Part shown: positions 7,857 to 45,982 of the stretch, in pieces
How positions within the stretch are numbered: position 1 is the first letter of the stretch
How the letters are laid out: each line of letters opens with the position of its first letter
UHGV virus genome: UHGV-0170246
DNA length: 45,982 nucleotides
Reading direction: 5' to 3' (one strand)
From: a virus
Translations under genes and position numbers: made by a program
The notes under the pieces: model-generated
Database searches by the model: none
Seen by the model: the letters and a program-made list of their open reading frames with translations, nothing else
What the model was told of the DNA's origin: nothing

Positions 7857-7880
7857 AGGCCCCTTCGGGGGCCTTTTTTA
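7857..7880 (+). terminator. Rho-independent terminator
   Basis: 7-bp stem AGGCCCC/GGGGCCT with TTCG tetraloop followed by TTTTTT. Confidence 0.75.
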
Positions 7881-29405: not shown

Positions 29406-30976
29406 ATATTCTTGATCGAGTTATTGCGCCGTTTTCACCTCAGAGGGCATTAAATCGAGCTTTGGCAAGAAAACGGTTAGAAGCACTTGAAGGTATTAAT
29501 AACCTTGGATATTCACGTCATGGTGCAAGCACTCATAAAAAATCATTAAGGGGTTGGTTTAGTAAAGCTGGTTCTCCTGATGATGATATTGTTAAAAATA
29601 TAGATAAATTGCGTGAGCGTTCTCGTGATCTCTTCATGGGAAACCCGCTATCGGTTGGCGCAATAAAAACTATCAGGACAAACGTTGTTGGTTCCGGTTT
29701 AAAACTAAATGCGAACATTGATGCCGATTTCTTGGGGATGACGCAGGAAGAAGCGCGAGCATGGGAAAAGCATGTTGAGCGTGAGTTTAGATTATGGGCT
29801 GATTCTCCAAATTGTGATGCATCAAGAATGTGTACTTTTGGACAATTGCAATCATTGGTCCAAATATCTGCGTTAACATCTGGCGATATATTTGCTGCGC
29901 TACCAGTTATTAAGCGTAAGGGTGTTATATATGATTTGTGCGTCTATTTAATTGAAGGTGATCGTGTTTGCAATCCAGAGGATCGTTTTATACCAAATCT
30001 TTACGGTGGCGTAGAGGTTGGTGAATTTAGCGAGCCTGTGGCGTACTGGGTTGCAAAACATCACCCAGCCGGGACTTCTGGTTTTGTAACCCGCAAGTGG
30101 GAACGTATTCCCGCATATGGGAGTAAAACAGGAAGAAGAAATATTCTGCATGTCATGCAGGATTTTGAAAGGCCTGGGCAACGCCGTGGCGTTCCTGTCC
30201 TTGCTCCTGTAATTGAAGCATTGAAGCAGTTAGGACGATACACCGATGCTGAATTGGTTGCTGCGGTTGTGTCAGGGATGTTTACTGTCTTTATTAAAAC
30301 AGACGCTCCTGATGGACCAGTCGGTGAATCGGGTATCCCTCAGTACGAGCAGATCGATAACCATGATGATAACACCCAAGAAATGGGGAATGGCTCCATA
30401 GTAAGTTTGGGTGAAGGTGAGTCGATAGATACAGCAAATCCCGGGCGACCAAATACGGCATTTGATGGTTTTGTTGTCGCCATATGCCGTCAAATTGGGG
30501 CTGCTTTAGAACTCCCTTACGAACTCTTGGTAAAGCATTTTACAGCAAGTTATAGCGCTAGCAGGGCCGCATTACTTGAAGCCTGGAAAATGTTCCGTAT
30601 GCGACGTGACTGGATGGTTCAGTCATTTTGCCAACCGATCTATGAGGAATGGTTGGCCGAAGCCGTTGCAAAAGGCCGTGTTATTGCCCCTGGTTTTTTT
30701 TATGGTCCTGAATATCGCGCTGCATGGAGCGGCGCCCAATGGTATGGCCCATCACAAGGCCAATTAGATCCCCTTAAAGAAGTTAAAGCTGCAAAACTGC
30801 GTGTTGAGGAAACATTCTCTACCCGTGAAAAGGAAGCGGCTGAAATGTCAGGTCTTAACTGGGAAGAAACCGCACAAATCTGTGGCAGAGAAGAGAATGC
30901 TCGCCGTGAGTTGGGGCTTATTACACCTCCTGTTTCTGAGGTAAATGAACAAAATATGGAGACTGATGATGCCTAA
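29402..30976 (+). CDS. Portal protein (lambda gpB family)
   Basis: 524 aa; position and length; ATGA overlap with the upstream gene. Confidence 0.8.
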   Translation: MNILDRVIAPFSPQRALNRALARKRLEALEGINNLGYSRHGASTHKKSLRGWFSKAGSPDDDIVKNIDKLRERSRDLFMGNPLSVGAIKTIRTNVVGSGLKLNANIDADFLGMTQEEARAWEKHVEREFRLWADSPNCDASRMCTFGQLQSLVQISALTSGDIFAALPVIKRKGVIYDLCVYLIEGDRVCNPEDRFIPNLYGGVEVGEFSEPVAYWVAKHHPAGTSGFVTRKWERIPAYGSKTGRRNILHVMQDFERPGQRRGVPVLAPVIEALKQLGRYTDAELVAAVVSGMFTVFIKTDAPDGPVGESGIPQYEQIDNHDDNTQEMGNGSIVSLGEGESIDTANPGRPNTAFDGFVVAICRQIGAALELPYELLVKHFTASYSASRAALLEAWKMFRMRRDWMVQSFCQPIYEEWLAEAVAKGRVIAPGFFYGPEYRAAWSGAQWYGPSQGQLDPLKEVKAAKLRVEETFSTREKEAAEMSGLNWEETAQICGREENARRELGLITPPVSEVNEQNMETDDA

Positions 30977-32033
30977 TTGGTGGGAAATAAAAAATAGCAC
31001 GGGTGAAGATGACTCTCCGGCTGAACTTTTAATTTACGGGTATATTGGTGAATTTGATGAGGTTTCTTCTTCTGACATAGTTAATAAATTAAAGGATATT
31101 TCATCAAATACTATCAACGTAAAAATTAATAGTTATGGTGGGTCTGTTTTTACTGCTCAAGCTATTCTTTCATCATTAAAGCGTCATAAGGCGAATATTA
31201 CGATTTATATCGACGGGATTGCTGCATCGGCTGCAACTATTATTGCAATGGCGGGTGATAAAATTATTATCCCATCTAATGCTATGATGATGATCCATAA
31301 TCCGTGGACATTTGCTGCTGGCGATGCGGATGAATTGCGTGATATTGCTGAGATGATGGATAAGATACGCAATAGTATTTTATCTGTATATAAGGAGAAA
31401 ACAGGGCTTTCTGAGGATAAATTAATTGAACTAATGGATCAGGAAACATGGCTAAATGCAGAAGAGGCTGTAGAGCTTGGATTTGCTGACGAAGTTGAAA
31501 AACCAATGCGCTTATCCGCTTCTATAAAGGAAGGGATGCTTTCGCTTAATGGAATAACTTTTGAAGCATCAAGGTTTTCAAAATTACCTGATTCACTCGC
31601 AAAGTTGCCGCAAAATAAAAATGAGTTATCTACTGAATCAAATGAACAAAATGAGGACGATATTGTGACTCTTGATGAATTAAAAAATAAATATCCAGAA
31701 TTATACAATCAGGTTTTTAATGCTGGTAAAGACGAGGGCGTTAAATCAGAACGCGAGCGCATTGAAACAATCGAGAATAGCGTGATTCCTGGTCATGACG
31801 ACCTGGTTAAGAATGCAAAATTCAAAACAGGAGTTTCTGCGGCTGAACTTGCTTTGGAAATTATGAATGCAGAGCGAGCGCGTAACAAAAACTTTCTTAA
31901 TCAACGGCAAGAAGACGCAAGTGAGGTGAATGATTCAGTTGATGTTAATCAACCAGAAAACAACGGCAACAAACAGGCTGAAGCAGTAAAAAATGTTATT
32001 GGGTCAGTATTTAAAAACCGCGATAAAAATTAA
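30966..32033 (+). CDS. Prohead protease, ClpP/S49-like, with C-terminal scaffold-like acidic region
   Basis: ClpP-like core (IDGIAASAATIIAMAGDK, MMMIHNPW) then a Glu/Asn-rich helical tail; start 30966 or 30969. Confidence 0.8.
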   Translation: MMPNWWEIKNSTGEDDSPAELLIYGYIGEFDEVSSSDIVNKLKDISSNTINVKINSYGGSVFTAQAILSSLKRHKANITIYIDGIAASAATIIAMAGDKIIIPSNAMMMIHNPWTFAAGDADELRDIAEMMDKIRNSILSVYKEKTGLSEDKLIELMDQETWLNAEEAVELGFADEVEKPMRLSASIKEGMLSLNGITFEASRFSKLPDSLAKLPQNKNELSTESNEQNEDDIVTLDELKNKYPELYNQVFNAGKDEGVKSERERIETIENSVIPGHDDLVKNAKFKTGVSAAELALEIMNAERARNKNFLNQRQEDASEVNDSVDVNQPENNGNKQAEAVKNVIGSVFKNRDKN

Positions 32034-32042
32034 GGTGAGTTT

Positions 32043-32426
32043 ATGCGAGAGTCTTTTTCATTTGAACCAGATAATCTGATTATTTCTGGTGGTATGCCAG
32101 CAATTCCAACAAGTATTAAACTTGCCAGCGGTAAAGTAAAACGGGGTGAGTTACTTGCTTTTGTCAGTATTGATCAGACAACAAATGTTGTCACTGTGGC
32201 GCCAATAAATCTCTCTGGTGAAGGGGAGGCAAAAGAACCGTATTGTATCGCTCAACACAATATTGATGCGACTGATTCAGCGCAAGTCGGAACAGCATGG
32301 CTGACCGGAATGTTCAATGCACATGCGGTTATCCTTCCTGAATCAGCAAAAGTTGCCGATGTATATCTGGCTTGCCGGAAGGTTGGAATATTCCTTAATA
32401 CCGCACAACAAAATCCATCTGCATAA
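32043..32426 (+). CDS. Head decoration protein (lambda gpD-like)
   Basis: 127 aa between protease and major capsid gene. Confidence 0.5.
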   Translation: MRESFSFEPDNLIISGGMPAIPTSIKLASGKVKRGELLAFVSIDQTTNVVTVAPINLSGEGEAKEPYCIAQHNIDATDSAQVGTAWLTGMFNAHAVILPESAKVADVYLACRKVGIFLNTAQQNPSA

Positions 32427-32446
32427 TATAAAGAGGTCGTATTTTT

Positions 32447-33490
32447 ATGCCGAATATTGATATTTTTGAACGACGTACAATGCTTGAGCCTGTTATTCAG
32501 AATTTCAAGGCTCGTCGTTTTCTTCTTCGTACCTTTTTCCCTGGTGTTCAGACCTTTAATACAAAGAAAGTTGATCTGGATTTTGTTCGCGGTGGCCGTA
32601 CTATGGCTCCGTTTGTTGGTAAAGGTTTTGGCTCAAAAACCGTTGAGCGACGCGGCTTTGTAACGAGAACTCTGGAGCCACCACTTGTTGCACCTGATTT
32701 GGTAACAACAGCCGAGCTGCTTTTAAACAGGCTTCCGGGTGAGAATATTTACAACGCAAAATCGCCAGCAGAACGAGCCGCCGAGCAATTAGGTAAAGAT
32801 TTGCTTGAGCTTGATGAAATGGTTAACCGCCGTGAAGAATGGATGTGTGCACAGGTCTTGTTTACGGGACAGGTTGATATTGTTGGTGAAGGAGTAGATG
32901 ACACAGTTTATTTTTGGCCTGAAGAGGAAGGTGATAAACCATACCTTGAACTGACAGGTGATGATTTATGGAGTGCCGCAAAATCAGATCCGTTGGTCAA
33001 TATCCGCAACTGGAAGCGCCGGGTATCACTAACATCAGGTTTTACACCTCGTACTGCTGTAATGGGTGCAAAAGTTGTTGATGCATTCGTTAAAAATGAA
33101 GCAGTAACTAAATATCTTGATAATCGTCGAAAAGAGTTTGGGTATATTAAGCCAGAGGACTTAGAAGAAGGAGTTACTCATTATGGTAATATTGAGGGGC
33201 TCGATTTTTATGGTTACGACGAACTTATTCTTAGTGATAAAACAGGAAAACCAGAACCATTAGTGCCGGAGGATAAGATTCTCCTTGGCTCTCCGGGGCG
33301 GGGAACTATGTTGTATGGTGCTGTAGAGCTTGTAGATGAAGCTGAAAAGACTCTGACGATTGTTGAGTCACCACGAGTTCCAGATACTTGGGTATCTCGT
33401 AAGCCGGGAGGTCGTTATGTTGCCATGAAGTCGTCTCCACTGCCTAATCCTGGCGTGGCTGACGCCTATCTGGTGGCTAAGGTGGTTTAA
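32447..33490 (+). CDS. Major capsid protein (lambda gpE family)
   Basis: 347 aa; N-terminal pattern resembles lambda gpE (recalled); position after the decoration gene. Confidence 0.8.
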   Translation: MPNIDIFERRTMLEPVIQNFKARRFLLRTFFPGVQTFNTKKVDLDFVRGGRTMAPFVGKGFGSKTVERRGFVTRTLEPPLVAPDLVTTAELLLNRLPGENIYNAKSPAERAAEQLGKDLLELDEMVNRREEWMCAQVLFTGQVDIVGEGVDDTVYFWPEEEGDKPYLELTGDDLWSAAKSDPLVNIRNWKRRVSLTSGFTPRTAVMGAKVVDAFVKNEAVTKYLDNRRKEFGYIKPEDLEEGVTHYGNIEGLDFYGYDELILSDKTGKPEPLVPEDKILLGSPGRGTMLYGAVELVDEAEKTLTIVESPRVPDTWVSRKPGGRYVAMKSSPLPNPGVADAYLVAKVV

Positions 33491-33883
33491 ATGGCCAGAC
33501 TGGTTAAAAACATCGATACGATAAGCCACGGCTCGCTAAAAGCGGGCCGTTTGCTTAATGGGCTAATGGATAACTCCAGAATTGCCGAACTGATTGCGTC
33601 AGGACATGCTATTGCCACCGAAGAGGATGGTGATTTGGCATCGGCTGGGGGCTATGATGCTGCTAAGTTAGCTTTTGAGCACGGATACGCATCTGCTGTT
33701 AATGATGCTGTGGACGCGGGGTTGATTACGCGAACGGAGGCGGGTAGCTGTGTATTCGAGGTTGAGTTTGAGGATGATGGCGGCAATGAGGAAATGGTTG
33801 CTGATGATTCATCTGAATCTGTAGCTACTTCTGATACCAGTAATGCGAAAAAATCAACGCAAAAAAAAGGTAATAAGAAGTAA
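33491..33883 (+). CDS. Hypothetical acidic head-associated protein (lambda FI position)
   Basis: 130 aa; by size and position only. Confidence 0.3.
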   Translation: MARLVKNIDTISHGSLKAGRLLNGLMDNSRIAELIASGHAIATEEDGDLASAGGYDAAKLAFEHGYASAVNDAVDAGLITRTEAGSCVFEVEFEDDGGNEEMVADDSSESVATSDTSNAKKSTQKKGNKK

Positions 33884-34227
33884 TGAACTCCTTCAAAGAG
33901 GTTATAGCGCAAGATATTTCTGCAATATTCCTCAATGAAAAAGAGTTTGCCGATACATATAACATAGACGGCAAGGATATCCTTGCCGTTATTGATACAG
34001 ACCTTATTCATGAGCGTAATAAACGCTCATATGCTGAGTTTGCAGAGGGAATAAATCAGGGACAAATAATATTATTTGTTTCAAGAAAAGATTTTCCTGT
34101 TATCCCTGTCAAAGACCAGTCAATGAAAATCAACGGTAAAAATTATATTGTTGATGAAGTATCAGATAATGTTGGTGTATTGGAAATAACTCTCACTGTT
34201 AATACTAACAGAGGAATGCCGATTTGA
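33883..34227 (+). CDS. Putative head-tail connector (lambda FII-like)
   Basis: 114 aa; by size and position, weak pattern similarity. Confidence 0.35.
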   Translation: MNSFKEVIAQDISAIFLNEKEFADTYNIDGKDILAVIDTDLIHERNKRSYAEFAEGINQGQIILFVSRKDFPVIPVKDQSMKINGKNYIVDEVSDNVGVLEITLTVNTNRGMPI

Positions 34228-34709
34228 TTAATCTTTTGATAGATGCAATAAAAAATCGGTTGGAACATGAGGTTTTCCATGATTTATTAGTGCAGGGGCC
34301 TCCTTATGATGAAACAGACAGCGATATTAAATTGTTTGTTCCAACAATATTTAAAGGGTACTTGCCTCCTAAATCACAACCATCTCCAGATAAACCGCCA
34401 GAATTTCCTCATGTGATTATCAGACCCACGGAAGGAGGAATGCAGCCTGAAACGGATGAAGTTAAGGTTAAGTTTCTTCTAGGTGGTTTTTGTGAGGACC
34501 ATACTGGATATGAATGGGTAATGGCTCTTCTTGAAAGGATGATGTTTCATTTTCAGGAGAAGCCTTTACTTGAAGAGAAATTTCTCTTTCAGGGTGATAT
34601 CAGATGGCGAATGTTTGATGATCAACCATATCCATATTGGATAACGGAAGCAACTGGAACGTGGCTAGTATTAAAGCCTCAGAATATTCAGTCTCAGGAG
34701 TTTATCTAA
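34224..34709 (+). CDS. Hypothetical protein, likely neck/tail completion
   Basis: 161 aa between head and sheath genes. Confidence 0.3.
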   Translation: MINLLIDAIKNRLEHEVFHDLLVQGPPYDETDSDIKLFVPTIFKGYLPPKSQPSPDKPPEFPHVIIRPTEGGMQPETDEVKVKFLLGGFCEDHTGYEWVMALLERMMFHFQEKPLLEEKFLFQGDIRWRMFDDQPYPYWITEATGTWLVLKPQNIQSQEFI

Positions 34710-35000
34710 ATGGCTAATAAGAAAAGTAGTAAAGAAGATATAGAAAAGAAGGAAGATGTTGCTCAAACATTTGTATATATAGGACCAACAATCCCTCAAC
34801 TCTCAATTTTGAAGCATAAACTATTTAAGAATGGTTTATCTCCAGAGTGTGAAAAATTAATATCACATATTCCTGGTGCAAAGTGTTTGTTTGTGGCAAC
34901 CAGTGATTTTGCAGATGCAGAAAAAAGACTTTCTGATAAAACCAGTGTCGAGTATGTAATGTACTCTAGAGTTTCTTCTTCTATCATGGAGATTAAATAA
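34710..35000 (+). CDS. Hypothetical protein
   Basis: 96-aa ORF directly upstream of the sheath gene. Confidence 0.3.
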   Translation: MANKKSSKEDIEKKEDVAQTFVYIGPTIPQLSILKHKLFKNGLSPECEKLISHIPGAKCLFVATSDFADAEKRLSDKTSVEYVMYSRVSSSIMEIK

Positions 35001-36463
35001 TGGGATATCGCCACGGTATTTATATATCTGAGCTGGCTACATCTATAACTCCTCCAGTACAAGTTAGTGCTGGGTTGATTGTCGCATTTGGTACAGCTCC
35101 TGTTAATCAGTTAGAAGATCCAGCCTCAGCGGTAAATAAACCTATCATTGCTTATACATACGCAGAGGCCGTATCTAAAATAGGATATAGCACAAACTTC
35201 GAGAAATATACTTTAAGCGAAGTAATTAAAGTCGCATTTGGAATATATGGTGTTGCGCCAGTTGTATTTATTAATGTGCTTGATCCAGCAAAGCATAAGA
35301 AAGACGTAACTGATGAGGTAGTAAAACTTTCTGGCGGGAAAGGTACGCTCTCTAACGATGGTGTCTTATATAAATCTGTTGTTGTGAAAAAAGCAGATGG
35401 TGATTCGGCAGGATTAACGGTTGATACCGATTATGTGCTGGCGCTGGATGATAATGGCTATACGGTCATTACCGCTATTAGCGGAGGAAAAATTACCGAA
35501 AAAGATGCTACTCTTAAGGTTAGTTATACGCATCTTGATCCCGGTGCCGTAACTAAAAATGACATTATCGGTGGTGTGGATTCCAACACTAAAGCCAATA
35601 CAGGGCTTGAGTTACTGTCTGATGTGTATCCCCGCTTCAAGTTGGTTCCTGGACAAGTGATTGCGCCTGGATTTAGTTCTGATAGTGAAGTTGGTCAGCT
35701 AATGGCGGCTAAAGCCGCGTTGATTAGTGAATTGTTCAAAGCAGAAGCCATAACTGATGCACCGACCGATAAATCTACTATCAGTGATTACTCGGCTGTT
35801 CCTGAATGGAAACAGAACAATAATCACATGGCCGCTAACCAGACAGTGTGCTGGCCGATGGTGAAACTTGGTGACAATATTTACCATCACTCAACCCATT
35901 TAGCGGCCGCAACATGCTTGCTGGATAGTCAGTATGGTGATATTCCATCACGTTCTCCGTCAAATATAAAACTACAGATGGACGGTGCTGTACGTAAAGA
36001 TGGCAGTGAAGTATGGCTTAACATTAGCCAGGCAAACTACTTAAATGGACAGGGGATTGTAACAAGCCTTAATTTTGATGGTTGGAAATCATGGGGAAAT
36101 CGTAATGCTATTTATCCAACATCTACAGACCCCAAAGACGCATTTCGTGTTTGCCGACGTATGTTTAACTGGGTGGGTAATACGTTAATTCTTTCGCATT
36201 GGTCAAAAATAGACAATCCTGCAAACCGTCGATTAATTGAATCGATTGTTACAAGTGCGAATATTTGGCTTAACGGCCTCACAGGTAATCAGGATATTGC
36301 AGGTGGTGTTGTTACCTTTGATCAGTCTGAAAACACGATTACGTCATTGATGGACGGGATTGTTAAATTCCATGTAAAAATGACACCATTCTCACCTGCC
36401 AGAGATATAGAGTTCGTCATGGAATATAATCCTGATTATCTGCTGAACTTGTTTTCTGAATAA
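35000..36463 (+). CDS. Contractile tail sheath protein
   Basis: 487 aa; N-terminal GIYISELATSITPPVQVSAGLIVAFGTAPVN pattern typical of myovirus sheath proteins. Confidence 0.8.
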   Translation: MGYRHGIYISELATSITPPVQVSAGLIVAFGTAPVNQLEDPASAVNKPIIAYTYAEAVSKIGYSTNFEKYTLSEVIKVAFGIYGVAPVVFINVLDPAKHKKDVTDEVVKLSGGKGTLSNDGVLYKSVVVKKADGDSAGLTVDTDYVLALDDNGYTVITAISGGKITEKDATLKVSYTHLDPGAVTKNDIIGGVDSNTKANTGLELLSDVYPRFKLVPGQVIAPGFSSDSEVGQLMAAKAALISELFKAEAITDAPTDKSTISDYSAVPEWKQNNNHMAANQTVCWPMVKLGDNIYHHSTHLAAATCLLDSQYGDIPSRSPSNIKLQMDGAVRKDGSEVWLNISQANYLNGQGIVTSLNFDGWKSWGNRNAIYPTSTDPKDAFRVCRRMFNWVGNTLILSHWSKIDNPANRRLIESIVTSANIWLNGLTGNQDIAGGVVTFDQSENTITSLMDGIVKFHVKMTPFSPARDIEFVMEYNPDYLLNLFSE

Positions 36464-36479
36464 ATAATAGGAGGTTGCT

Positions 36480-37001
36480 TTGAGCAATCAAATTCCTGAG
36501 AGACTTATTAACTTTACAGTATACGGTGAGGGAAACCGTATTATCGGTGTTGCTGACGCAAAGCTGCCATCAATTGAGATGATGACAGAAACTGTTAGTG
36601 GTGCAGGTATCGCTGGAGAGCTTGAGAGCGGAACGCTGGGGCATTTCAAACCAATGACTGTCTCTCTTAAATGGCGAACTCTGACCTCTGCTGGTACAAA
36701 ATTATTTCTATCCTCATCGCATCAGGTAGATTTTCGCGGTAGCCAGCAGGTTTATGATGCAGGAACAGGAAAATATAAAACGGTTCCTATTCGGGCTTCA
36801 ATGAAGCTAAACCCTAAAAAACTGGATTTAGGTTCGCTACAGGTGGCAAAGGCTACTGATTCAGAGAATGAATTTGAAGTTCTCTATATCAAATTATTTA
36901 TTGATGGAAAAGAAGTCTTGGAAATTGATAAGTTGAACTTTATTTGTATCTTTGATGGTGAAGATATATTAAAAAGCGTTCGTGATGATTTAGGTTTATA
37001 A
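36480..37001 (+). CDS. Tail tube protein (P2 FII-like)
   Basis: 173 aa; TTG start 7 nt after AGGAGG; N-terminal NFTVYGEG pattern. Confidence 0.7.
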   Translation: MSNQIPERLINFTVYGEGNRIIGVADAKLPSIEMMTETVSGAGIAGELESGTLGHFKPMTVSLKWRTLTSAGTKLFLSSSHQVDFRGSQQVYDAGTGKYKTVPIRASMKLNPKKLDLGSLQVAKATDSENEFEVLYIKLFIDGKEVLEIDKLNFICIFDGEDILKSVRDDLGL

Positions 37002-37010
37002 GGTGACAAA

Positions 37011-37292
37011 ATGGAAACCGTTAAATTAAGTAAAGAATATCGTTTTGAAGACTTTGAGCCGGTGACTGAACTCAACCTTGATTTAGACAACCTAAAAGGC
37101 AGTGATATTTTAGAGGTATCGGACTTACTGCAATCTCAAGGGCATGTTTCAGTTCAAACATCACTTGATAATAAAGTCCATGCAGCCTTGGCTGCTCGCT
37201 GTATTGGCCGTCCAATAGAGTATCTGAATGGATTGCCAGCGAAAGACTTTATTAAAGTTTGTCAAAAGGTACAGAATTTTTTGCTCTCGTAG
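37011..37292 (+). CDS. Tail assembly chaperone (P2 gpE-like), frame-0 product
   Basis: 93 aa between tube and tape-measure genes; ends just after a slippery heptamer. Confidence 0.6.
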   Translation: METVKLSKEYRFEDFEPVTELNLDLDNLKGSDILEVSDLLQSQGHVSVQTSLDNKVHAALAARCIGRPIEYLNGLPAKDFIKVCQKVQNFLLS

Positions 37293-37441
37293 GTTTTGAT
37301 GAGCAAAAACCTATTGATAAGCAAATAATGAGGGCCGCGAGTTCTCTATCTCAATCATCTCAATCAACACCTATATCCTACTGGCTTTCGCTTCGGTTGA
37401 GGCGAATCGTCGCATGGATTGATGTGTTTAATGAGGATTAA
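37259..37441 (+). CDS. Frameshift extension of the tail chaperone (E'-like), made only as a fusion with 37011-37283
   Basis: -1 frame relative to the chaperone; continues 52 codons past the slip site. Confidence 0.5.
   Translation: MSKGTEFFALVGFDEQKPIDKQIMRAASSLSQSSQSTPISYWLSLRLRRIVAWIDVFNED
37277..37283 (+). other. Candidate -1 programmed ribosomal frameshift site, slippery heptamer T-TTT-TTG
   Basis: In frame 0 the heptamer is aaT TTT TTG; the overlapping ORF 37259-37441 is in the -1 frame. Confidence 0.6.
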
Positions 37442-37446
37442 TACTA

Positions 37447-40239
37447 ATGGCCAGCAATAAGAACTTTAAGCTGGCTTTTGAAATTGGCGGCAAAGTTGCC
37501 GCCTCTCTCCCCAAAAGTTTTACTACAGCTAATCAGGCTGTTGCTAAATTAAATGCCGAGCTTGCTGGATTAACGAAAGAACATGGGGAAATTCAAAAGC
37601 TACAATCTGTAAAAGTAAAGGTTGGACAGACTGCCCTCGAATATCATAAAGCTGCCGCTCGCGTTGAAGAGTTACAGAAGCAAATAAAAAACACGGCCAA
37701 TCCAACCAGAGCGATGCTTCGTGACTTTGAGAAGGCAAAAACACATTCATCAAATTTACGAGCATCACTACGTTCTCAGCGTGAAGAACTGGCCGCTTTA
37801 AAGTCTGCGTATCAGGGAGCTGATACATCTGCCAGAGCTTTGGCCTCAAGAGAGAAAGAGCTTAAAGCAAGCATTGATCGTAATCGTGAGGCTCAGGCCC
37901 GTAGCGTTGAGCAGGTTAACCGCTACAGAACGGCTTTGGCTTTAGCCAGAGCAAATGTTCAGCAAGTGAAAAAACAGCAGGAGGAACTTAACCGGGCATT
38001 AGAAAAACAACGTATTGATAAAATTAACAGTTATAAAAATGCGTTGGCTGAAGCACGGAAAAATGTTCTTGCAGTAAAACGTGCTCAGGAGGAGTTAAAC
38101 CGCGCGTTGGAAAGGCAGCGTGAATTGAAGCGAGAGCATCTTGGTGAGGCAAAGAGTCAACTTGTAAGGTCAGGATTACAAACTGGTGCTGTAGCGGCTG
38201 GTGCATTTGCTGCTGCTAACAATGCAGCAAATTTCAATCGTGAAAACAAAATGATTGGTCTTACGGCAGATATGAAGCCGGAAGAAGTTCAGGCGATGGG
38301 GCAGGCGATGCTTGTTACCGGAACGGCCACCAACCAGTTTGCATCTGATATTCAGGCCGCTCAGGGTTTTCTCGTCGCTGCTGGGCAGGATTATAAAGAG
38401 GCTCAGGCGAATCTACTAACTATTGGGCGAACAGCTACAGCTACTGGCTCTGATATCCTCGATGTCTCGAAAGCATCATTTACATTAAGTGACTCATTGA
38501 AGATTGATCCATCTCAAATGAAGTCTGCAATGGGGATTCTGGTTCAGGCAGGGAAAGAGGGAAACTTTGAATTTAAAGATATGGCCAAAAATCTTCCTGT
38601 GCTTGGTGCTCAGTTCCAGGCATTAAAAATGGGAGGTAAAGAAGCCGCCGCGACGATGGGGGCAGCTTTGCAGATAGCTCGCAAAGGTGCTGCAACTTCG
38701 GATGAGGCTGCTAATAATATGAACAACTTTTTGGCAAAAATACTTTCCCCTGAAACACTAAAAAAAGCAAAGAAAAATTTCGGTGTAGATTTATATAAAA
38801 TTGTCACAACAGCGCAGAAAAAAGGGAAGAATCCATTCGAAGCTGCAATGCATTCTGTCATGAAAATGACTAAGAACGGAGATCAGAAGTTACTTGGTGA
38901 ACTATTTGGCGATATGCAGGTTCAGAACTTTGTTCGTCCGATGATTCAAAACTGGAAGGAATACCAGAGAATCAAAGCAACATCTCTTGGAGCTGGAAGT
39001 GCTGTTATTGACCGCGATTTTGCCAACATAACGAAAGATAATGCGGAGCGATTGAAACAATTACGTATTCAGGCTAGCAATGCATCATTAAGTTTTGGTC
39101 AGGCCTTGCAACCTGCTTTGAATGCCGCGCTTAGTGTTTTGGTTCCGCTGATTACAAAAATTAGTGAATTTGTAGCTAACAACCCCAATTTTGTGTCTCA
39201 GATAGTGATGGCGGCAGGTGCGTTTCTAACCATGAAAAGTGTGGTTATAGCGTGTAGGGTAGCTATGCTGGCTTTATCTGTAGCGACAAAGCTAACACCC
39301 TTCGGGTGGATTCAGATGGCTATATCTGCGCTGGTTGCCGCAGGAATATTGCTCTATCAGAACTGGGATAAGATCAGAGATTATGCTGTCAGAGTTTGGC
39401 CTTCTGTTAAGGAATATACAGTTAAATCGTTTGAGACTATAAAAAACTTTATCTTAAACTTTGATCTCAATGGATGGATTATATCTATATTTGGTAAAGC
39501 ATGGGATTATCTTTCCAACATAAACTGGAGTTCGGCAGGAGTAAGAATTTACAGTACATTAATTAGTGCTTTTAAATGGATGTCTCCGCTTCCGTTCTTA
39601 ATTAAAGCATTTAAACTTACAACAAATTACCTTTCTGGCATTAACTGGAGCGAAACAGGAAAGAAAATCATAGATACACTGGTATCTGTTTTTATGCGTT
39701 TTTCGCCAGTTGGACTCTTTATAAGAGCATTCCAATCTGTAACGGCTTATTTATCTGGAATAAACTGGAGTGAGTCAGGTGCAAAAATAATTGAGACGTT
39801 AATCATTGGGATAAAATCAAAAGCAAATGCTTTAATTAATGAAGTGAAAGGCGTTTTTTCTTCTGTACGTGAGTATTTACCGTTCTCTGACGCGAAAAAA
39901 GGTCCATTCTCACAGCTAACAAAGTCAGGTGGTGCAATAATGACTACTCTGGCATCAGGTGTTAGCAGGAATAACAGCTTACAGAATGCAATAGCAACCA
40001 AGTTCGGGCAATCAAATTTATCACCTCACGGGATATCTGCCGCCGGGACTTCTGGACCTCGCCAGAACGTTAATGCTGTGACTGGTGGAATAACCTATTC
40101 ACCTGTAATCAATCTTCCGGCTGGTTCACCAAAGGAAACTGAGGCGGCAGCTAAAAGAGCATTAGATGCGGGATATTCTGATTTTGAGAAGAAATTGAGT
40201 GCTCATATGTTCCAACAACGGAGATTAAGTTTTGGATGA
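37447..40239 (+). CDS. Tail tape measure protein
   Basis: 930 aa; coiled-coil N-terminal region, central hydrophobic segments, W-containing repeats (GINWSE x3). Confidence 0.85.
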   Translation: MASNKNFKLAFEIGGKVAASLPKSFTTANQAVAKLNAELAGLTKEHGEIQKLQSVKVKVGQTALEYHKAAARVEELQKQIKNTANPTRAMLRDFEKAKTHSSNLRASLRSQREELAALKSAYQGADTSARALASREKELKASIDRNREAQARSVEQVNRYRTALALARANVQQVKKQQEELNRALEKQRIDKINSYKNALAEARKNVLAVKRAQEELNRALERQRELKREHLGEAKSQLVRSGLQTGAVAAGAFAAANNAANFNRENKMIGLTADMKPEEVQAMGQAMLVTGTATNQFASDIQAAQGFLVAAGQDYKEAQANLLTIGRTATATGSDILDVSKASFTLSDSLKIDPSQMKSAMGILVQAGKEGNFEFKDMAKNLPVLGAQFQALKMGGKEAAATMGAALQIARKGAATSDEAANNMNNFLAKILSPETLKKAKKNFGVDLYKIVTTAQKKGKNPFEAAMHSVMKMTKNGDQKLLGELFGDMQVQNFVRPMIQNWKEYQRIKATSLGAGSAVIDRDFANITKDNAERLKQLRIQASNASLSFGQALQPALNAALSVLVPLITKISEFVANNPNFVSQIVMAAGAFLTMKSVVIACRVAMLALSVATKLTPFGWIQMAISALVAAGILLYQNWDKIRDYAVRVWPSVKEYTVKSFETIKNFILNFDLNGWIISIFGKAWDYLSNINWSSAGVRIYSTLISAFKWMSPLPFLIKAFKLTTNYLSGINWSETGKKIIDTLVSVFMRFSPVGLFIRAFQSVTAYLSGINWSESGAKIIETLIIGIKSKANALINEVKGVFSSVREYLPFSDAKKGPFSQLTKSGGAIMTTLASGVSRNNSLQNAIATKFGQSNLSPHGISAAGTSGPRQNVNAVTGGITYSPVINLPAGSPKETEAAAKRALDAGYSDFEKKLSAHMFQQRRLSFG

Positions 40240-40450
40240 TTATAGAACGGTTCAAGGGGACTCATGGGATAGTATCGCGTTAAAGTTGTATGGTAATGAG
40301 TACCTGTCTTATCTTCTTATTGATGCTAATACTGAGCACCGCTTTACGGTGCTTTTTTCTGCGGGAATTATTCTTAAAGTTCCTGATGCTCCGGTTATGC
40401 CAATATCAGTAAACAATTTGCCTCCGTGGAGACGCAATAGTGTTACGTAA
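40232..40450 (+). CDS. Tail protein X-like (LysM-like)
   Basis: 72 aa; LysM-like N-terminus; position after the tape measure gene. Confidence 0.5.
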   Translation: MDDYRTVQGDSWDSIALKLYGNEYLSYLLIDANTEHRFTVLFSAGIILKVPDAPVMPISVNNLPPWRRNSVT

Positions 40451-41441
40451 AACGCTTTTTGATGTTATATATCAGAATGTAAATATTACCGCTCATATGT
40501 CACCTGATGTTTTGTCAATGTCTTATACAGATAATGAAGATGGTCAGGTCGATGATATTTCTATTATATTAAAAAATGATGATGGGAAATGGTCTGGAGA
40601 CTGGACACCTAAAAAGGGTGATTTTATTGATTTGAGCTTTAAGCCTATAAATCAAATCGTCCTTGAGTGCGGGAAATTCCAGGTAGATGGCATAACTTGC
40701 TCTGGACCACCTTCTGTTGTTGAGGTGACTGCTGTTTCTGTTCCTGTTTCATCAGGCATTAGACGTGATTTAAAAAGTAATGCATGGGAAAAAACAACTC
40801 TTAAAGATATAGCAACCTCTATAGCTAAATTAGCTAACCTTGAACTGTTGTTTCTTATTGATGGTGATAGTAATCCATATTATGCGCGTGAAGATCAAAT
40901 GGAGGAAAGCGATTTAAAATTTCTCCATCGACTATGCCAGGATGAAGGGTTGTCGTTAAAGGTCACTGATAGCCAATTAATAATATTTGCTCAAGAGATG
41001 TTTGAGCAAAAAGATCCTATCGCTACGCTTACGTTAGGTATTGATGAGATAATCAGATATAGCTTTAGCACACAATCTACAGATTTGTATAAAAGTTGCA
41101 CGTGCAAATATCGCGTACCTAAAAAAAGAAAGTCGCTTTCGTATACTTGGGTAGATCCATCCGTAGAAGAAGGGTCGAATCTTAAGATAAGAAAACTGGT
41201 AGCTAATTTAGATGAAGCAAAACGTAAGGCAAAGGCTGCTTTGCGGCTTAAAAATAGATATCAAAATACAGGATCTTTAGTATTGGTTGGAGACACCAGA
41301 TTGGTAGCTGGTGTAACTATAAATCTGGACGGATTCGGTTCATTTTCTGGAAAATATCTTATATCGAAAGCTGTGCATTCAATTGGGGCTAGTGGTTATA
41401 CCACCTCGATTGATGTCCGAAGAGTAATTAATGGGTATTAA
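40440..41441 (+). CDS. Tail protein, P2 gpD-like (late control D / baseplate hub)
   Basis: 333 aa; position between X-like and V-like genes. Confidence 0.55.
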   Translation: MLRKTLFDVIYQNVNITAHMSPDVLSMSYTDNEDGQVDDISIILKNDDGKWSGDWTPKKGDFIDLSFKPINQIVLECGKFQVDGITCSGPPSVVEVTAVSVPVSSGIRRDLKSNAWEKTTLKDIATSIAKLANLELLFLIDGDSNPYYAREDQMEESDLKFLHRLCQDEGLSLKVTDSQLIIFAQEMFEQKDPIATLTLGIDEIIRYSFSTQSTDLYKSCTCKYRVPKKRKSLSYTWVDPSVEEGSNLKIRKLVANLDEAKRKAKAALRLKNRYQNTGSLVLVGDTRLVAGVTINLDGFGSFSGKYLISKAVHSIGASGYTTSIDVRRVINGY

Positions 41442-41443
41442 TT

Positions 41444-42064
41444 ATGAATGATTTAGAAACATTATTACGTCAGACTATAAGAGTTGGCGTTGTTTCTGAT
41501 ATTGATGATGGTGATGTTACAGCAAGAGTTACTTTCGATGATCAGGATAACGTCACTTCGGCAAAGTTATCAGTTATTGTGAAAAATACGGATAAGAATG
41601 CTGATTACTGGATGCCAGATATTGGTGAGCAAGTTTTGTGTATCTTTCATCCCGCAGGGCCGCAACAAGGTTTTATTCTTGGTAGTTTTTATGATGAAAC
41701 ACAGAAGCCGCCATCTAATACTGTTAATAAACGCGTCATTAGATTTAATAACGGAACTCGTATTGAGGTAGACAGAGAATCTAATTTACTCCTTGTTGAT
41801 GCTGTCGGAGATGTAACCGTTAAGGCTACAGGAACCGTAACTATTGATGCTCCAGAAACCATCATTACCGGAAATGCTACAGTTGAAGGATTACTAACCT
41901 TCAAAGGTGGAATGAAAGGATCTTCTGCTGGAGGTGTTGCAGCTACAATTTCTGGGGATGTTAAGGTTGTTGGTGGTGATATAGATGTTGATGGGATTAA
42001 ATCTAAAGGCCACCATCACACGGCTCAGGGGGAATACGCTCCGACAACGGAGGCTCAGGCATGA
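41444..42064 (+). CDS. Baseplate assembly protein V-like (spike)
   Basis: 206 aa; N-terminal OB-fold-like region and Gly/Val-rich beta C-terminus. Confidence 0.6.
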   Translation: MNDLETLLRQTIRVGVVSDIDDGDVTARVTFDDQDNVTSAKLSVIVKNTDKNADYWMPDIGEQVLCIFHPAGPQQGFILGSFYDETQKPPSNTVNKRVIRFNNGTRIEVDRESNLLLVDAVGDVTVKATGTVTIDAPETIITGNATVEGLLTFKGGMKGSSAGGVAATISGDVKVVGGDIDVDGIKSKGHHHTAQGEYAPTTEAQA

Positions 42065-42528
42065 TTGTGGGTATGCTTGGTACAATGCCTTTTGTTGCCT
42101 CATCAATAGTGGTGAATACGTTCAACAATTTTAAAAGGACGTCAAAGCGTCGTGTAGCGCGCCATGATGTTATTGGGCTTAAACCTGTTCTGGAGGATAT
42201 AGGTCCAGATCTGGATGAAGTTAGTTTTAATATGCGGTTGGATACAACACTTGGCATTGTTCCATTGGCTGCGCTTTCATTACTTAGGACAATGCAATCA
42301 ATTCAGGAAGTAAATCCTGTTGTAATTGGTATTCAGTATTTTGGTAATTTTATAATTACAGATATAGAGGAATCATGGACTTATTTCGGTCCAACTGGGA
42401 ATCCACGAGTGATTATCGTCGGCATTAAATTACAGGAAGTCGGACAGACCTCTCTGAAAGAAGCATTAGTTGATATTGCTGGCAATATAGAGTCAAAAAC
42501 TAGAAGTGCGTTAGGTAAATTATTATGA
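42061..42528 (+). CDS. Hypothetical baseplate-associated protein
   Basis: 155 aa between V-like and W-like genes. Confidence 0.35.
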   Translation: MIVGMLGTMPFVASSIVVNTFNNFKRTSKRRVARHDVIGLKPVLEDIGPDLDEVSFNMRLDTTLGIVPLAALSLLRTMQSIQEVNPVVIGIQYFGNFIITDIEESWTYFGPTGNPRVIIVGIKLQEVGQTSLKEALVDIAGNIESKTRSALGKLL

Positions 42529-42845
42529 ATAATACGTTTACCATATCATCACCTTCTTACTCGATTGATTGGTCACCCAAAACAGTTGTAGAAGAAGTTT
42601 TGCAAAATGTCTCTACTATTATTAATACTCAGATTGGCACTGTACCATATGCCAGAAAATTAGGAGTTAATTCAAGTCTTGTTGATAGCCCTAGCCCAAT
42701 TTTTATTGCTACAGCAACACGAGAAATAATTCAAAAAATTAGTGAGTTTGAGCCTAGAGCGATTATCCATTCTGTTACTTTTGAAAGAACGGACGTTTCT
42801 GATGGTTTTATTAGGCCAAAACTTGTGATAGGAGTTAGAGAATGA
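42525..42845 (+). CDS. Baseplate wedge protein, GPW/gp25-like
   Basis: 106 aa; EEVLQNVSTIINTQIGTVPYARKLG fits the gp25/GPW pattern. Confidence 0.65.
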   Translation: MNNTFTISSPSYSIDWSPKTVVEEVLQNVSTIINTQIGTVPYARKLGVNSSLVDSPSPIFIATATREIIQKISEFEPRAIIHSVTFERTDVSDGFIRPKLVIGVRE

Positions 42846-43966
42846 CGTTGCCGCGCGGTGGTTTGCCAGATATTACTTTCGCAGATTCTAACCCGACTGA
42901 TATAACAACTCGTTCAATCAGGGCTTTTGAGAGTATAACAGGTGAAACATTAGCACCTGCTGATCCACGTAGATTATTCATCTTGTCATTGTGTGAGATT
43001 ATTATACAGCAAAGAAAAGCTATCGATTTTTCTGCAAAACAAAACCTTCTTACATATGGTGGGGGTGAATATCTCGACCATATAGGCTATCTGACGGATA
43101 CGCCTAGGCTGGAAGCTCAATCTGCCTTGACTACATTTGAGTTTAATCTGTCAACAAAATTATCGGGGATATATACAATACCTGCTGGCACTCAAATTTC
43201 AACTGGAAATAGTGTTATTTTCCAAACAGATGTTTTGTTGGAAATACCAGCTGGGAAAACAGTTGGTACAGTCTCAGGATATGCTGTTATACCTGGCTTA
43301 TCGGGGAATGGATTTTTACCTGGGCAAATAAACGAGTTGGTGACTCCGTTGCCGTATGTTTCCAGCGTAAGGAATCTAACAACATCTAATTCTGGTGCTG
43401 ATACAGAGTCAGATGATAATTATGCTGAAAGAATAAAACTGTCGCCGGAAAAACTGTCTACAGCAGGGCCGGAGGATTCTTATAAATATTGGACAAGAAC
43501 AGCCAATCAGAATATAAAAGATGTGAATGTATATACACCATCGCCCGGAACTGTAGAAATCCGTTCTTTGTTAGAGAACGGGGATATACCTTCTGATGAA
43601 CTATTAGAGCAGATAAATAGCGTTCTCTCTGCAACTAATATTCGACCATTCACAGATAAAGTTCTTGTTAAGAAACCAGAGAGCATTGAATACGATATAA
43701 TAATTAAATACTGGATTAACTCATCGGACAAAAACAGAACAACGTTAATTCAAAGTGAGGTTGAGAAAGCTCTTGATGAGTATAAACAATGGCAACGTTC
43801 GGTTATGGGAAGAGATATAAATCCAGATGAAATTATTCAACGTTTAAAAAATGCCGGGGCTAAAAGATTAGAAATATCAAGTCCTGTATTTACTGTAGTT
43901 GGAGAGACGCAGGTCGCCAGAGAGAGAAATATAAATTGCCAGTATGCGGGGTTAGAGGATGGCTGA
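42842..43966 (+). CDS. Baseplate protein J-like
   Basis: 374 aa; position and size match P2 gpJ. Confidence 0.7.
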   Translation: MTLPRGGLPDITFADSNPTDITTRSIRAFESITGETLAPADPRRLFILSLCEIIIQQRKAIDFSAKQNLLTYGGGEYLDHIGYLTDTPRLEAQSALTTFEFNLSTKLSGIYTIPAGTQISTGNSVIFQTDVLLEIPAGKTVGTVSGYAVIPGLSGNGFLPGQINELVTPLPYVSSVRNLTTSNSGADTESDDNYAERIKLSPEKLSTAGPEDSYKYWTRTANQNIKDVNVYTPSPGTVEIRSLLENGDIPSDELLEQINSVLSATNIRPFTDKVLVKKPESIEYDIIIKYWINSSDKNRTTLIQSEVEKALDEYKQWQRSVMGRDINPDEIIQRLKNAGAKRLEISSPVFTVVGETQVARERNINCQYAGLEDG

Positions 43967-44540
43967 TATCTTTAATGTTAGCTTGTTGGATGTTTTACCT
44001 CCTAACTTAGCTAGAGATCCCAACGTGATAGCTATGTCGAAAGCTATTGATGATGAACTACAAGCAATTAACAATTTAATATATAAGACAGAAATATATA
44101 GCGTTGTTGATAACCTGGACTCAGTTGTTCTCGATCATTTAGCTTGGCAATGGAATGCTGATACATGGAGGGATAGTTGGCCTGTATCGTTAAAGCGTTC
44201 TGTTTTTAAATCAATAATACGAACAAAGCGAATAAAGGGTACAAGGGCAGCGGTTGACGATGTAGTAAATAGCTTGGGTGGAGAGGTAAACATAACAGAA
44301 TGGTTTGAAACATCACCACCTGGCGAACCATATACAGCCTCAATTGTTGCTTCGATTAACTCTTTTGATGGTGCCGTTCCTTCGAAAGAGATGTTGGAAG
44401 ATACGTTAAGAAGTATCAAGAGCGCAAAGTCGGCAAGAACATTATTTACATTTTCGCAAGCAGCCAATGTTTCTGGTGGTGTCGGTATTGTTGGTGCTTG
44501 TCAGCCTGTGTCTTATGTACGATTAATTGGCGAGTGCTAA
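43959..44540 (+). CDS. Tail protein I-like
   Basis: 193 aa; follows the J-like gene with overlap. Confidence 0.65.
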   Translation: MADIFNVSLLDVLPPNLARDPNVIAMSKAIDDELQAINNLIYKTEIYSVVDNLDSVVLDHLAWQWNADTWRDSWPVSLKRSVFKSIIRTKRIKGTRAAVDDVVNSLGGEVNITEWFETSPPGEPYTASIVASINSFDGAVPSKEMLEDTLRSIKSAKSARTLFTFSQAANVSGGVGIVGACQPVSYVRLIGEC

Positions 44541-44570
44541 TTCGCAATTTGTTAATTCAAGGAATTAAGC

Positions 44571-45982
44571 GTGAGTAAATTATTATTTACGATGACTGAC
44601 GCCGGGCGTCAGGAGCTGGTTAATGCCAACAAAACAGGAACAAATAAAGTTGAGATTGTTTCTGTTGGTTTAGGTAGTAGATATTATGTCACGTCAACTT
44701 CACAAACAAATATAACAAACGAAATAAAACGACTTACCACAATAGGTGGCAAAGTTGTTTCCCCTGATACAATTCATGTAACAGCGAAGGATGATAGTAA
44801 AGATGAGTATGTTGTCCATACAATAGGATTGTATACGAATAAGGGTACGTTGTTTGCTGTATACTCACAAGAACAAGCAATAATAAATAAAGCATCATCT
44901 ACTATCGCTTTAATATCAAGTGATATAGCAATTAAAACTCTTGATACTAAAAATATTACATTTGGTGATATTGAGTTTATTAATCCTCCCGCGACCGAAA
45001 CTGTTGTTGGGGTGGCAAGATTTGCTAATGAACAAGAAATTGATGCAGGTACAGATGATTCCCTTGCTGTTTCAGCAAAACGGCTTAAGCAAGCCATTGT
45101 GAAACATGAGCAATCACGTAATCATCCTGATGCAACTTTAACCTCAAAAGGCTTTGTTCAACTTAGCAGCGCCACCAATAGCGCGTCTGAAACGCTTGCT
45201 GCGACGCCTAAGGCTGTTAAGGCAGCATATGACCTGGCTAATGCTAAATACACCGCACAGGACGCTACCACAGCGCGAAAAGGGATTGTTCAGCTCAGTA
45301 GTGCCACCAACAGCACGTCTGAAACGCTGGCAGCAACACCAAAGGCTGTTAAGGCAGCGTATGATCTTGCGGCCGGAAAGGCTCCGTCCAATCACACGCA
45401 TTCGTGGGAGCAGATAACAAATGTGCCTGTAGCTTCACTGACTGTAAGGGGAATAACTCAGCTCAGTAGTGCCACCAACAGCACGTCTGAAACACTGGCC
45501 GCGACATCGAAAGCTGTAAAGGTGGTAATGGATGAAACGAACAAGAAAGCGCCCCTGAACAGTCCGGCGCTGACCGGAACACCAACAACACCAACTGCGC
45601 CAAAAGGTACTAACAATACTCAGATCGCAAGCACGGCTTATGTTATGGCTGCGATTGCCGCCCTTGTAGATTCGTCACCTGACGCACTGAATACGCTGAA
45701 CGAGTTAGCGGCGGCGCTGGGAAACGACCCGAATTTTGCGACCACCATGACTAACGCGCTTGCGGGTAAGCAACCGAAAGATGCCACCCTGACGGCGCTG
45801 GCCGGGCTTGCTACTGCGGCAGACAGGTTTCCGTATTTTACGGGGAATGATGTCGCCAGCCTGGCAACTCTGACAAAAGTCGGGCGGGATATTCTTGCGA
45901 AATCGACCGTTGCCGCCGTTATCGAATACCTCGGTTTGCAGGAAACGATAAACAAGGCTTCTGGCGCATTACAGAAAAACCA
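44571..45982 (+). CDS. Tail fibre protein (P2 gpH / Mu S-like constant part), 3'-truncated by the window edge
   Basis: GTG start; open frame to the window end, absent from the ORF track because there is no stop; three tandem fibre repeats; reading frame runs through the gix-like site at 45919-45944. Confidence 0.8.
   Translation, partial: MSKLLFTMTDAGRQELVNANKTGTNKVEIVSVGLGSRYYVTSTSQTNITNEIKRLTTIGGKVVSPDTIHVTAKDDSKDEYVVHTIGLYTNKGTLFAVYSQEQAIINKASSTIALISSDIAIKTLDTKNITFGDIEFINPPATETVVGVARFANEQEIDAGTDDSLAVSAKRLKQAIVKHEQSRNHPDATLTSKGFVQLSSATNSASETLAATPKAVKAAYDLANAKYTAQDATTARKGIVQLSSATNSTSETLAATPKAVKAAYDLAAGKAPSNHTHSWEQITNVPVASLTVRGITQLSSATNSTSETLAATSKAVKVVMDETNKKAPLNSPALTGTPTTPTAPKGTNNTQIASTAYVMAAIAALVDSSPDALNTLNELAAALGNDPNFATTMTNALAGKQPKDATLTALAGLATAADRFPYFTGNDVASLATLTKVGRDILAKSTVAAVIEYLGLQETINKASGALQKN
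45150..45535 (+). repeat. Three tandem ~90-bp coding repeats inside the tail fibre gene (GxVQLSSATNSxSETLAATPKAVKAAYDLA)
   Basis: Read directly at ~45150-45242, 45280-45372 and 45446-45535. Confidence 0.8.
45919..45944. other. gix/cix-like crossover site (TTATCGAATACCTCGGTTTGCAGGAA), inverted partner of 39-64
   Basis: About 23/26 identical to the Mu gix site as recalled; lies inside the tail fibre reading frame. Confidence 0.7.

Follow-up and report, generated by a model that had tools for sequence, protein, structure and literature searches.

Probable programmed -1 frameshifting in a tail assembly chaperone gene of a phage-plasmid with a contractile tail

We analysed a stretch of viral DNA of 45,982 nucleotides (UHGV-0170246; hereafter the window), in which the gene of a predicted tail assembly chaperone overlaps an ORF in the -1 frame (Table 1). 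The genes around it form a contractile-tail module, in the order sheath, tube, chaperone and tape measure. The product of the putative sheath gene has no Pfam match at E<=0.01, and its counterpart in phage vB_EcoM-613R2 is annotated as 'tail sheath protein FI'. The tape measure protein is the presumed client of the chaperone pair, and the motif AATGAGGAT at the Shine-Dalgarno sequence of its gene is invariant across the aligned relatives.

Table 1. Features of the tail module around the putative shift site, with positions in the window
Feature	Position	Strand	Basis and remarks
Tail sheath gene, 487 aa	35000..36463	+	ORF; heads the sheath-tube-chaperone-tape measure block
Tail tube gene, 173 aa	36480..37001	+	Pfam PF04985 Phage_tube, E=3.5e-44, full length; directly 5' of the chaperone gene
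Putative Shine-Dalgarno AAGGTGA of the chaperone gene	37000..37006	+	Read from sequence; 4 nt 5' of ATG 37011
Frame-0 tail assembly chaperone gene, 93 aa	37011..37292	+	Counterpart of P2 E and lambda G
Speculative Shine-Dalgarno-like AAGGT	37266..37270	+	6 nt 5' of the heptamer
Slippery heptamer T TTT TTG, putative -1 shift site	37277..37283	+	X XXY YYZ register; sequence, conservation and P2 annotation
-1 extension (E'-like), 52 codons + TAA	37283..37441	+	Would be read only after the shift; predicted fusion of ~143 aa
Putative Shine-Dalgarno GAGGA of the tape measure gene	37433..37437	+	Within the last codons of the -1 extension
Tape measure gene, 930 aa	37447..40239	+	Pfam PF10145 PhageMin_Tail, 1e-20; counterparts in relatives carry the tape measure annotation
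X-like, D-like and V-like baseplate/hub genes	40232-42064		Pfam Phage_tail_X, Phage_GPD and Phage_base_V

The frame-0 ORF of the chaperone gene ends with ...CAG AAT TTT TTG CTC TCG TAG. A sequence-only reading of this DNA had proposed that the frame-0 gene stops three codons after a T TTT TTG heptamer; the sequence bears this out, and the heptamer is in the X XXY YYZ register. That reading had also proposed that the -1 frame continues for 52 codons, and we indeed count 52 sense codons from position 37283. The -1 frame, which overlaps the frame-0 gene by 37 nt, has no stop codon from 37256 until the TAA at 37439-37441, and this TAA is separated from the ATG of the tape measure gene by 5 nt. No other frame stays open past the chaperone stop codon, the +1 frame being shut at 37299.

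The 93-residue protein matches phrog_3140, 'tail assembly chaperone' (2e-42), and the conceptual fusion lengthens that match to 135 profile positions (128-262). The extension alone matches phrog_30074 (1.2e-33), a family of unknown function. In Pfam, the family PF10109 Phage_TAC_7 ('E, or 41 or 14') matches the 93-residue protein (the E part) with an E-value of 8.2e-5 over positions 1-78/79, at 23.0 bits versus a gathering cutoff of 25 bits. The same family is matched by all seven aligned relatives (7/7, best 4.5e-8), and most of the 233 homologs carry a precomputed match to it. PF10109 was the only family found in a Pfam scan of the short and fused products, which returned no lambda-type chaperone family, and no NCBIfam model matches the short protein, the extension or the fused protein. 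The AlphaFold2 model of the E part has a pLDDT of 94.2. Its best viral structural matches are a 147-residue protein (TM 0.90, 44% identity) and proteins named tail assembly chaperone or tape measure chaperone. A Foldseek search of the PDB with this model yielded nothing (best E=2.3), and a PDB sequence search with the family profile gave matches at chance level only. The similarity of the chaperone to YqbN of the Bacillus subtilis skin prophage (PDB 3KLU) and to the HK97 tail assembly chaperone (PDB 2OB9) is modest.

We determined how often such an arrangement is expected by chance. The sequence TTTTTTG is not enriched in the window, with 17 copies versus 21.2 expected at 44.7% GC, and the probability of finding any in-register heptamer within a stretch of eight codons is ~3.7%. 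The 107 ORFs of at least 80 residues in the window contain 80 in-register heptamers. Only one of these 80, the heptamer of the chaperone gene, both lies within the last 10 codons of its ORF and has a -1 frame that stays open for 90 nt or more beyond the stop codon. Open runs in the -1 frame have a median length of 6 codons in the window, and runs of at least 54 codons are found at 4% of positions. The heptamer alone is thus not unusual, and the case for a frameshift rests on comparative evidence.

An in-register slippery heptamer is present two to seven codons 5' of the stop codon in all 13 independent lineages that we checked, as well as in phage P2. These lineages diverge down to ~30% protein identity, and in all of them the -1 frame reaches the tape measure gene or its vicinity. 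The heptamer has the form T TTT TT(G/C/A) in 12 of them and A AAT TTT in the remaining one. We excluded one further locus (L023), because frame errors of a noisy assembly break both its tube and its chaperone genes.

The closest relatives, at 98-99% nucleotide identity, are the Yersinia phages vB_YpM_39/41/44 and the Escherichia phages vB_EcoM-613R2/473R2, and six near-identical IMG/VR contigs and many Escherichia coli plasmid records are further close relatives (single-protein search of viral contigs). A second, intermediate group (70-77% protein identity) stems from Hafnia, Citrobacter, Klebsiella and Salmonella. In each of these relatives, two sense codons separate TTTTTTG from the stop, and the -1 frame remains open until it ends at or overlaps the start of the tape measure gene. 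When both groups are taken together, every relative from E. coli, Yersinia, Hafnia, Citrobacter and Salmonella has the heptamer and the open -1 frame. The six distant homologs, at 34-47% identity, belong to Vibrio phages X29 and PVP-XSN, Pararheinheimera phage KLER1-1, Faecalibacterium phage Epona, Paenibacillus phage Lily and Acinetobacter phage HFM1. They have T TTT TT(G/C) in register, three to seven codons before the stop, and the -1 frame is the only one that continues toward the tape measure gene. The peptide encoded in it is recognisably homologous among these phages (FFxxxG[LF]...TPIxYWLSLPL...). Six more lineages, of metagenomic origin, have the same arrangement.

A metagenomic gut lineage (L026) carries A AAT TTT, itself a canonical slippery heptamer, at the equivalent place and keeps a homologous -1 extension. 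The replacement of the T-run by this heptamer points to selection on slippage rather than on the T-run. At the protein level, a Phe followed by Leu or Phe is found 1-6 residues from the C-terminus in 115 of 122 database homologs, and F90, encoded by the TTT of the heptamer, is the sole invariant column in an alignment of 117 homologs. Given these residues, the probability that the T-run is kept by synonymous codon choice is ~0.16 per lineage, or ~2e-10 for the 12 lineages if they are independent.

To characterise the extension as a coding sequence, we calculated dN/dS ratios among close and intermediate relatives for the 144 nt of it that share no base with the frame-0 gene. The -1 frame has ratios of 0.06-0.20 and zero stop codons. 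In contrast, the other two frames of the same 144 nt have ratios from 0.9 to ~7, mostly above 1, and contain two to seven stop codons. The variable sites are distributed 14/6/29 over the three codon positions of the -1 frame. Judged from these substitutions, the segment is under purifying selection, and in the -1 frame only.

A segment that is translated in the -1 frame could also be a separate small gene with its own start codon, such as ATG 37328 or TTG 37259. The sequence-only reading had stated that the -1 frame has neither a start codon nor a ribosome-binding site of its own. The former statement does not hold, since the frame contains four start-like codons (TTG 37259, ATG 37328, TTG 37397 and GTG 37424), of which ATG 37328 is kept among the enterobacterial relatives. 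The latter does: none of the four is preceded by a credible Shine-Dalgarno sequence. Gene callers have annotated separate small CDSs in PVP-XSN, KLER1-1 and Lily, and phrog_30074 groups such stand-alone calls. However, the positions of start codons in the -1 frame are not conserved across lineages, and these codons are not kept in the distant relatives. The -1 frame of X29 opens just one codon before the heptamer, and the first start-like codon of HFM1 is found 32 codons 3' of the heptamer, past most of the conserved peptide. In addition, the peptide conserved across lineages starts directly at the heptamer. Initiation at a start codon of its own thus fails to explain the data, as it accounts neither for the invariant heptamer nor for a peptide (FFxxxG[LF]...) that begins there, and we consider a separate gene very unlikely.

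The long product might instead arise by transcriptional slippage, if RNA polymerase added or dropped a U in the run of six T residues. The site is homopolymeric, and a change of one base in the mRNA would have the same outcome for the reading frame, so that the two mechanisms are indistinguishable by sequence in that respect. However, efficient slippage by bacterial RNA polymerase generally needs runs of ~8-9 residues or more, and the T6 run is shorter. Moreover, the lineage with A AAT TTT has no long homopolymer, yet it has a canonical heptamer for tandem slippage. The X XXY YYZ register, which matters to ribosomes but not to polymerase, is kept in every lineage. Polymerase slippage therefore appears as improbable as a separate gene.

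Lastly, that a homopolymer error or a mutation split a single 143-residue gene, or that the -1 ORF is a chance frame, can practically be dismissed: although homopolymer runs are error-prone, as illustrated by a T5 variant among the homologs (P0019) that reads into the +1 frame and by the frame errors that fill the assembly of L023, T6 followed by G is present in every independent record examined (the genomes of five phages, six viral contigs, one RefSeq plasmid and P2), the arrangement extends to lineages of ~30% identity with Gram-negative and Gram-positive hosts, sequence identity at the locus is 95-100% across 71 complete E. coli genomes, none of 233 homologs has the two parts naturally fused in frame, and a chance ORF is ruled out by the purifying selection on the -1 frame.

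Taken together, the gene order, the heptamer, its register, the predicted product sizes and the comparative conservation match the frameshift known from tail assembly chaperone genes and support this interpretation. We thus put at roughly 0.93 the probability that ribosomes undergo a programmed -1 frameshift in the chaperone gene of this contractile-tail phage-plasmid. The proposal that it is the conserved chaperone frameshift seen as G/GT in lambda and E/E' in P2, which had been put forward from the sequence alone, gains support from the gene order, the heptamer and register shared with P2, the 13 lineages and the selection on the -1 frame.

We infer the slip, how efficient it is and what each of the two proteins does along the following lines. 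The majority of ribosomes would read the frame-0 gene and terminate at its TAG codon to yield the 93-residue chaperone, which corresponds to gpE of P2 and gpG of lambda. A minority would slip back by one base, with the Phe-tRNA in the P-site on UUU (37278-37280) and the Leu-tRNA in the A-site on UUG (37281-37283). Both tRNAs would re-pair with UUU/UUU in a tandem slip on U UUU UUG, in which the Leu-tRNA keeps its first two base pairs. The slipped ribosomes would then read the 52 codons of the -1 frame up to its TAA, giving a fusion of ~143 residues whose first 91 residues are common to both products. Under tandem slippage the junction would be ...VQNFL-ALVGFDE..., and a small share of ...NFF-ALV... 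may arise from slips that precede filling of the A-site. The junction NFF-ALVGFDE suggested by the sequence-only reading is accordingly correct as a plain -1 reading of the DNA but not as the expected main form, for which tandem slippage gives NFL-ALVGFDE. The junction of P2 E+E' is likewise annotated as of the Leu type (GFL-VAELG). The predicted tryptic peptide that spans the junction is VQNFLALVGFDEQKPIDK for the Leu form or VQNFFALVGFDEQKPIDK for the Phe form. If the two proteins act as do those of lambda G/GT and P2 E/E+E', the short one would coat the tape measure protein and the long one would recruit tube subunits through its extension. A low and fixed ratio of long to short protein would follow from the efficiency of the slip.

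We then looked for elements that might stimulate the slip. The RNA downstream of the heptamer in the window folds no better than shuffled sequences (z = -0.62 for 60 nt and -0.95 for 100 nt), so that slip efficiency is not predictable from it. Downstream structure is also absent from a Hafnia-type relative (z = +0.8), from lineage L024 (z = -1.05) and from P2 (z = 0.0), the last of these in agreement with a published account in which P2 and P2-like phages lack a hairpin (PMC3091744). In contrast, strong hairpins are predicted 8-16 nt past the heptamer in X29, PVP-XSN and KLER1-1 (z = -5.7, -7.9 and -3.2, respectively), and those of the two Vibrio phages, which begin 8 nt past the heptamer, are very stable. 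Any stimulator is thus lineage-specific. Upstream of the heptamer, the GGT of the AAGGT motif is invariant in the close and intermediate relatives, and (A/G)GGTG motifs recur in several distant lineages and in P2. As AAGGT also encodes a conserved Lys-Val pair, this upstream signal is ambiguous, and we gave it no weight. A tentative possibility, to which we attach rather less than even odds, is that the chaperone family forms a natural series in which one slippery site is tuned by differing or absent stimulators and, in the gut lineage with A AAT TTT, has been exchanged for another heptamer. The family is also coupled to an extension (phrog_30074) with no recognisable relation to the GpE domain of P2, even though the tube protein is of the P2 FII type. 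If the ratio of short to long product differs between lineages, the family could show how this ratio is set and how the extension and the tube protein co-evolve.

Comparison with P2 (NC_001895) reveals extensive parallels in organisation. P2 has the same T TTT TTG heptamer in the same Phe-Leu register, preceded by a different codon (GGT TTT TTG versus AAT TTT TTG in the window). In both genomes, which encode a contractile tail, an FII-type tube gene (PF04985) precedes the chaperone gene and the tape measure gene follows it, the heptamer is a few codons short of the stop of a gene of ~91-93 codons, the -1 ORF extends 37 nt back into the upstream gene, and the heptamer is followed by no RNA structure. 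The E and E+E' products of P2, made by a -1 frameshift, have 91 and 142 residues (Christie et al. 2002, as summarised in PMC3091744 and PMC3931495), close to the 93 and 143 residues predicted here. The P2 heptamer, with an annotated -1 site, is found seven codons before the stop codon of E, and in the window the stop is the third codon after the heptamer. Nevertheless, there are differences. The E' ORF of P2 overlaps the start of T, whereas the -1 extension of the window stops short of the tape measure ATG. Finally, the tape measure gene is followed by X-like, D-like and V-like genes in the window, versus U and D in P2.

At the sequence level, the N-terminal parts of P2 E and of the window protein are in or at the edge of PF10109, with 47.8 bits for P2 E versus 23.0 bits. 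P2 E+E' matches PF06528 Phage_P2_GpE at 76.3 bits, whereas the extension of the window belongs to phrog_30074 instead, and PF06528 has no match in this extension or in those of five distant relatives even at E<=10. Direct similarity to P2 E+E' is not significant either, with an E-value of 6.3 by BLASTP and of ~0.03 at a probability of ~1.5% by hhalign of the family profiles, although the hhalign alignment is collinear and places both shift sites in the same column. With no support from BLASTP, PF06528 or hhalign, we rejected homology between the extension and the GpE domain of P2. These searches suggest that the kinship with P2 E/E+E' is functional and positional, that the E part is a remote homolog at most and that the extension belongs to a different sequence family.

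The G/GT genes of lambda represent the conserved tail assembly chaperone frameshift of tailed phages (Levin 1993; Xu, Hendrix and Duda 2004, 2013, 2014; reviewed in PMC5009743). In this class, the long product is made in a low proportion to the short one, and both are required for tail assembly yet do not form part of the virion. For lambda, the short and long products are made at a ratio of ~30:1 (PMC5009743). In lambda and in the window alike, a pair of ORFs that overlap occupies the space between the major tail gene and the tape measure gene. As in lambda, a -1 slip heptamer of the X XXY YYZ type lies near the end of the first ORF, and the second ORF lacks initiation signals of its own. In contrast, lambda has G GGA AAG as its slippery sequence and a non-contractile tail, whereas the window has T TTT TTG in a contractile-tail module. 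Position and mechanism thus make the window an analog of lambda G/GT, without homology in sequence, which the class does not require.

A true homolog is found in Vibrio phage X29 (RefSeq NC_024369), with 45% identity over the E part. The heptamer and its distance to the stop (third codon) are the same, and the -1 extensions are homologous (...TPIPYWMTMPL... in X29, ...TPISYWLSLRL... in the window). RefSeq presents this X29 homolog as a joined CDS, described as a 'lambda gpGT analog'.

We also determined the distribution of the locus. The tail block matches 86 plasmids of the PLSDB collection, nearly all of them non-mobilizable, and the best matches are ~48-49 kb long. Of 5,426 complete E. coli genomes, 71 contain the locus, that of ATCC 25922 among them, and in every case it is found in plasmid records. 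These matches indicate that the window comes from a family of E. coli phage-plasmids of ~48 kb that includes the Yersinia phages vB_YpM_39/41/44.

The frameshift proposed here would be of an ordinary, textbook type of recoding, and it would be new only in being unannotated in this phage-plasmid family. Its main value is for annotation, as a predicted tail assembly protein of ~143 residues is missing from all the GenBank and RefSeq records that we examined of this widespread family of E. coli and Yersinia phage-plasmids. Recognising the frameshift would correct the proteome of these phage-plasmids and provide a clean junction peptide, and it would leave our knowledge of recoding unchanged. In the family records that we examined (five phage genomes and one PGAP-annotated plasmid), annotation of the long product is absent. 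The GenBank phage records and PGAP end the gene at the 93-residue 'phage tail assembly protein', which leaves an apparently intergenic gap of 154 nt. In some of the distant relatives, the extension is annotated as a spurious stand-alone 'hypothetical protein'.

The T-run heptamer found at the end of the window's chaperone gene is not the only form of slippery site at this locus. One gut-metagenome lineage (L026), whose chaperone proteins end in ...NFIYGEG, has A AAT TTT in place of the T-run (positions 1215-1221 of the locus), a canonical slippery heptamer of a different type; the homologous -1 extension is retained and overlaps the start of the tape measure gene. The chaperone gene itself also varies. 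The 199-aa homologue P0024, encoded at 901-1500 of locus L027, is made up of two tandem chaperone domains, as is the homologue P0032. The L027 gene carries T TTT TTC two codons 5' of its stop codon, and its -1 extension is open and reaches into the tape measure gene. Another homologue, the 142-aa Epona-like protein P0019, reads ...VTSF-STARTERRAQ..., which corresponds to the +1 frame of an Epona-type locus. This +1 reading is consistent with a T5 run in place of T6 at the slippery site, which would reflect either natural variation in the length of the homopolymer or a mistake in the assembly.

In every GenBank and RefSeq record examined for the window's family, the -1 extension is devoid of annotation, leaving a gap of 154 nt 3' of the 93-aa gene. 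In the distant phages PVP-XSN, KLER1-1 and Lily, stand-alone hypothetical proteins have been called from parts of the extension, and phrog_30074 appears to be a collection of such calls.

We compared the folding downstream of the heptamer with that of shuffled sequences. In the Vibrio phages X29 and PVP-XSN, a very stable hairpin starts 8 nt 3' of the conserved heptamer (-24.8 kcal/mol, z = -5.7, and -31.9 kcal/mol, z = -7.9, respectively). Their apical stems differ in sequence, but the pairing is kept. The Pararheinheimera phage KLER1-1 also has a hairpin (z = -3.2). The same comparison revealed none 3' of the heptamer in the window, its enterobacterial relatives or P2.

Coordinates of the features identified in the window (no prefix) and in related loci
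Feature	Position	Strand	Basis
Unannotated 154-nt gap	37293-37446; L001, L002 (both family records) 3794-3947; L025 (family record) 2528-2681		Record annotations
Hairpin 3' of heptamer	L003 (X29) 1479-1530; L004 (PVP-XSN) 1464-1515; L005 (KLER1-1) about 1479-1527		Folding
Other in-register heptamers with long -1 frames	45279-45285	+	
	ORF 17389-17634 (reverse-complement coordinates)	-	
C4 antisense RNA	7033-7120	-	Rfam, 84 bits
isrK Hfq-binding RNA	7145-7218	-	Rfam, 70 bits
ryfA RNA	7581-7879	+	Rfam, 135 bits
tRNA-Met (CAT) gene	19729-19804	+	ARAGORN and Rfam

The window is a member of a phage-plasmid family of roughly 48-49 kb, an assignment that rests on positions 30000-45982 and covers the whole window by extension. 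Its tail block has matches in 86 PLSDB plasmid records, nearly all non-mobilizable. The chaperone locus is present in 71 of 5,426 complete Escherichia coli genomes, including ATCC 25922, at 75 places, all of them in plasmid records; no chromosomal copy was found in this set. The Yersinia phages vB_YpM_39/41/44 are isolates of the same element.

At two further in-register heptamers of the window, AAAGGGA and TTTCCCC, the -1 frame also stays open over a long distance (232 and 86 codons). Both heptamers are located in the middle of short ORFs, of 87 and 81 aa, respectively, that are probably spurious and overlap real genes in another frame.

The C4, isrK and ryfA matches all exceed the Rfam gathering score and are grouped within 900 nt, in an arrangement that resembles an antisense immunity region of the P1/P7 type. 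The tRNA-Met gene lies inside a mechanical ORF (19603-20034). Finally, no Pfam family was matched at E<=0.01 by the 487-aa product of the gene at the sheath position (35000-36463, + strand), although it is annotated as tail sheath protein FI in relatives.
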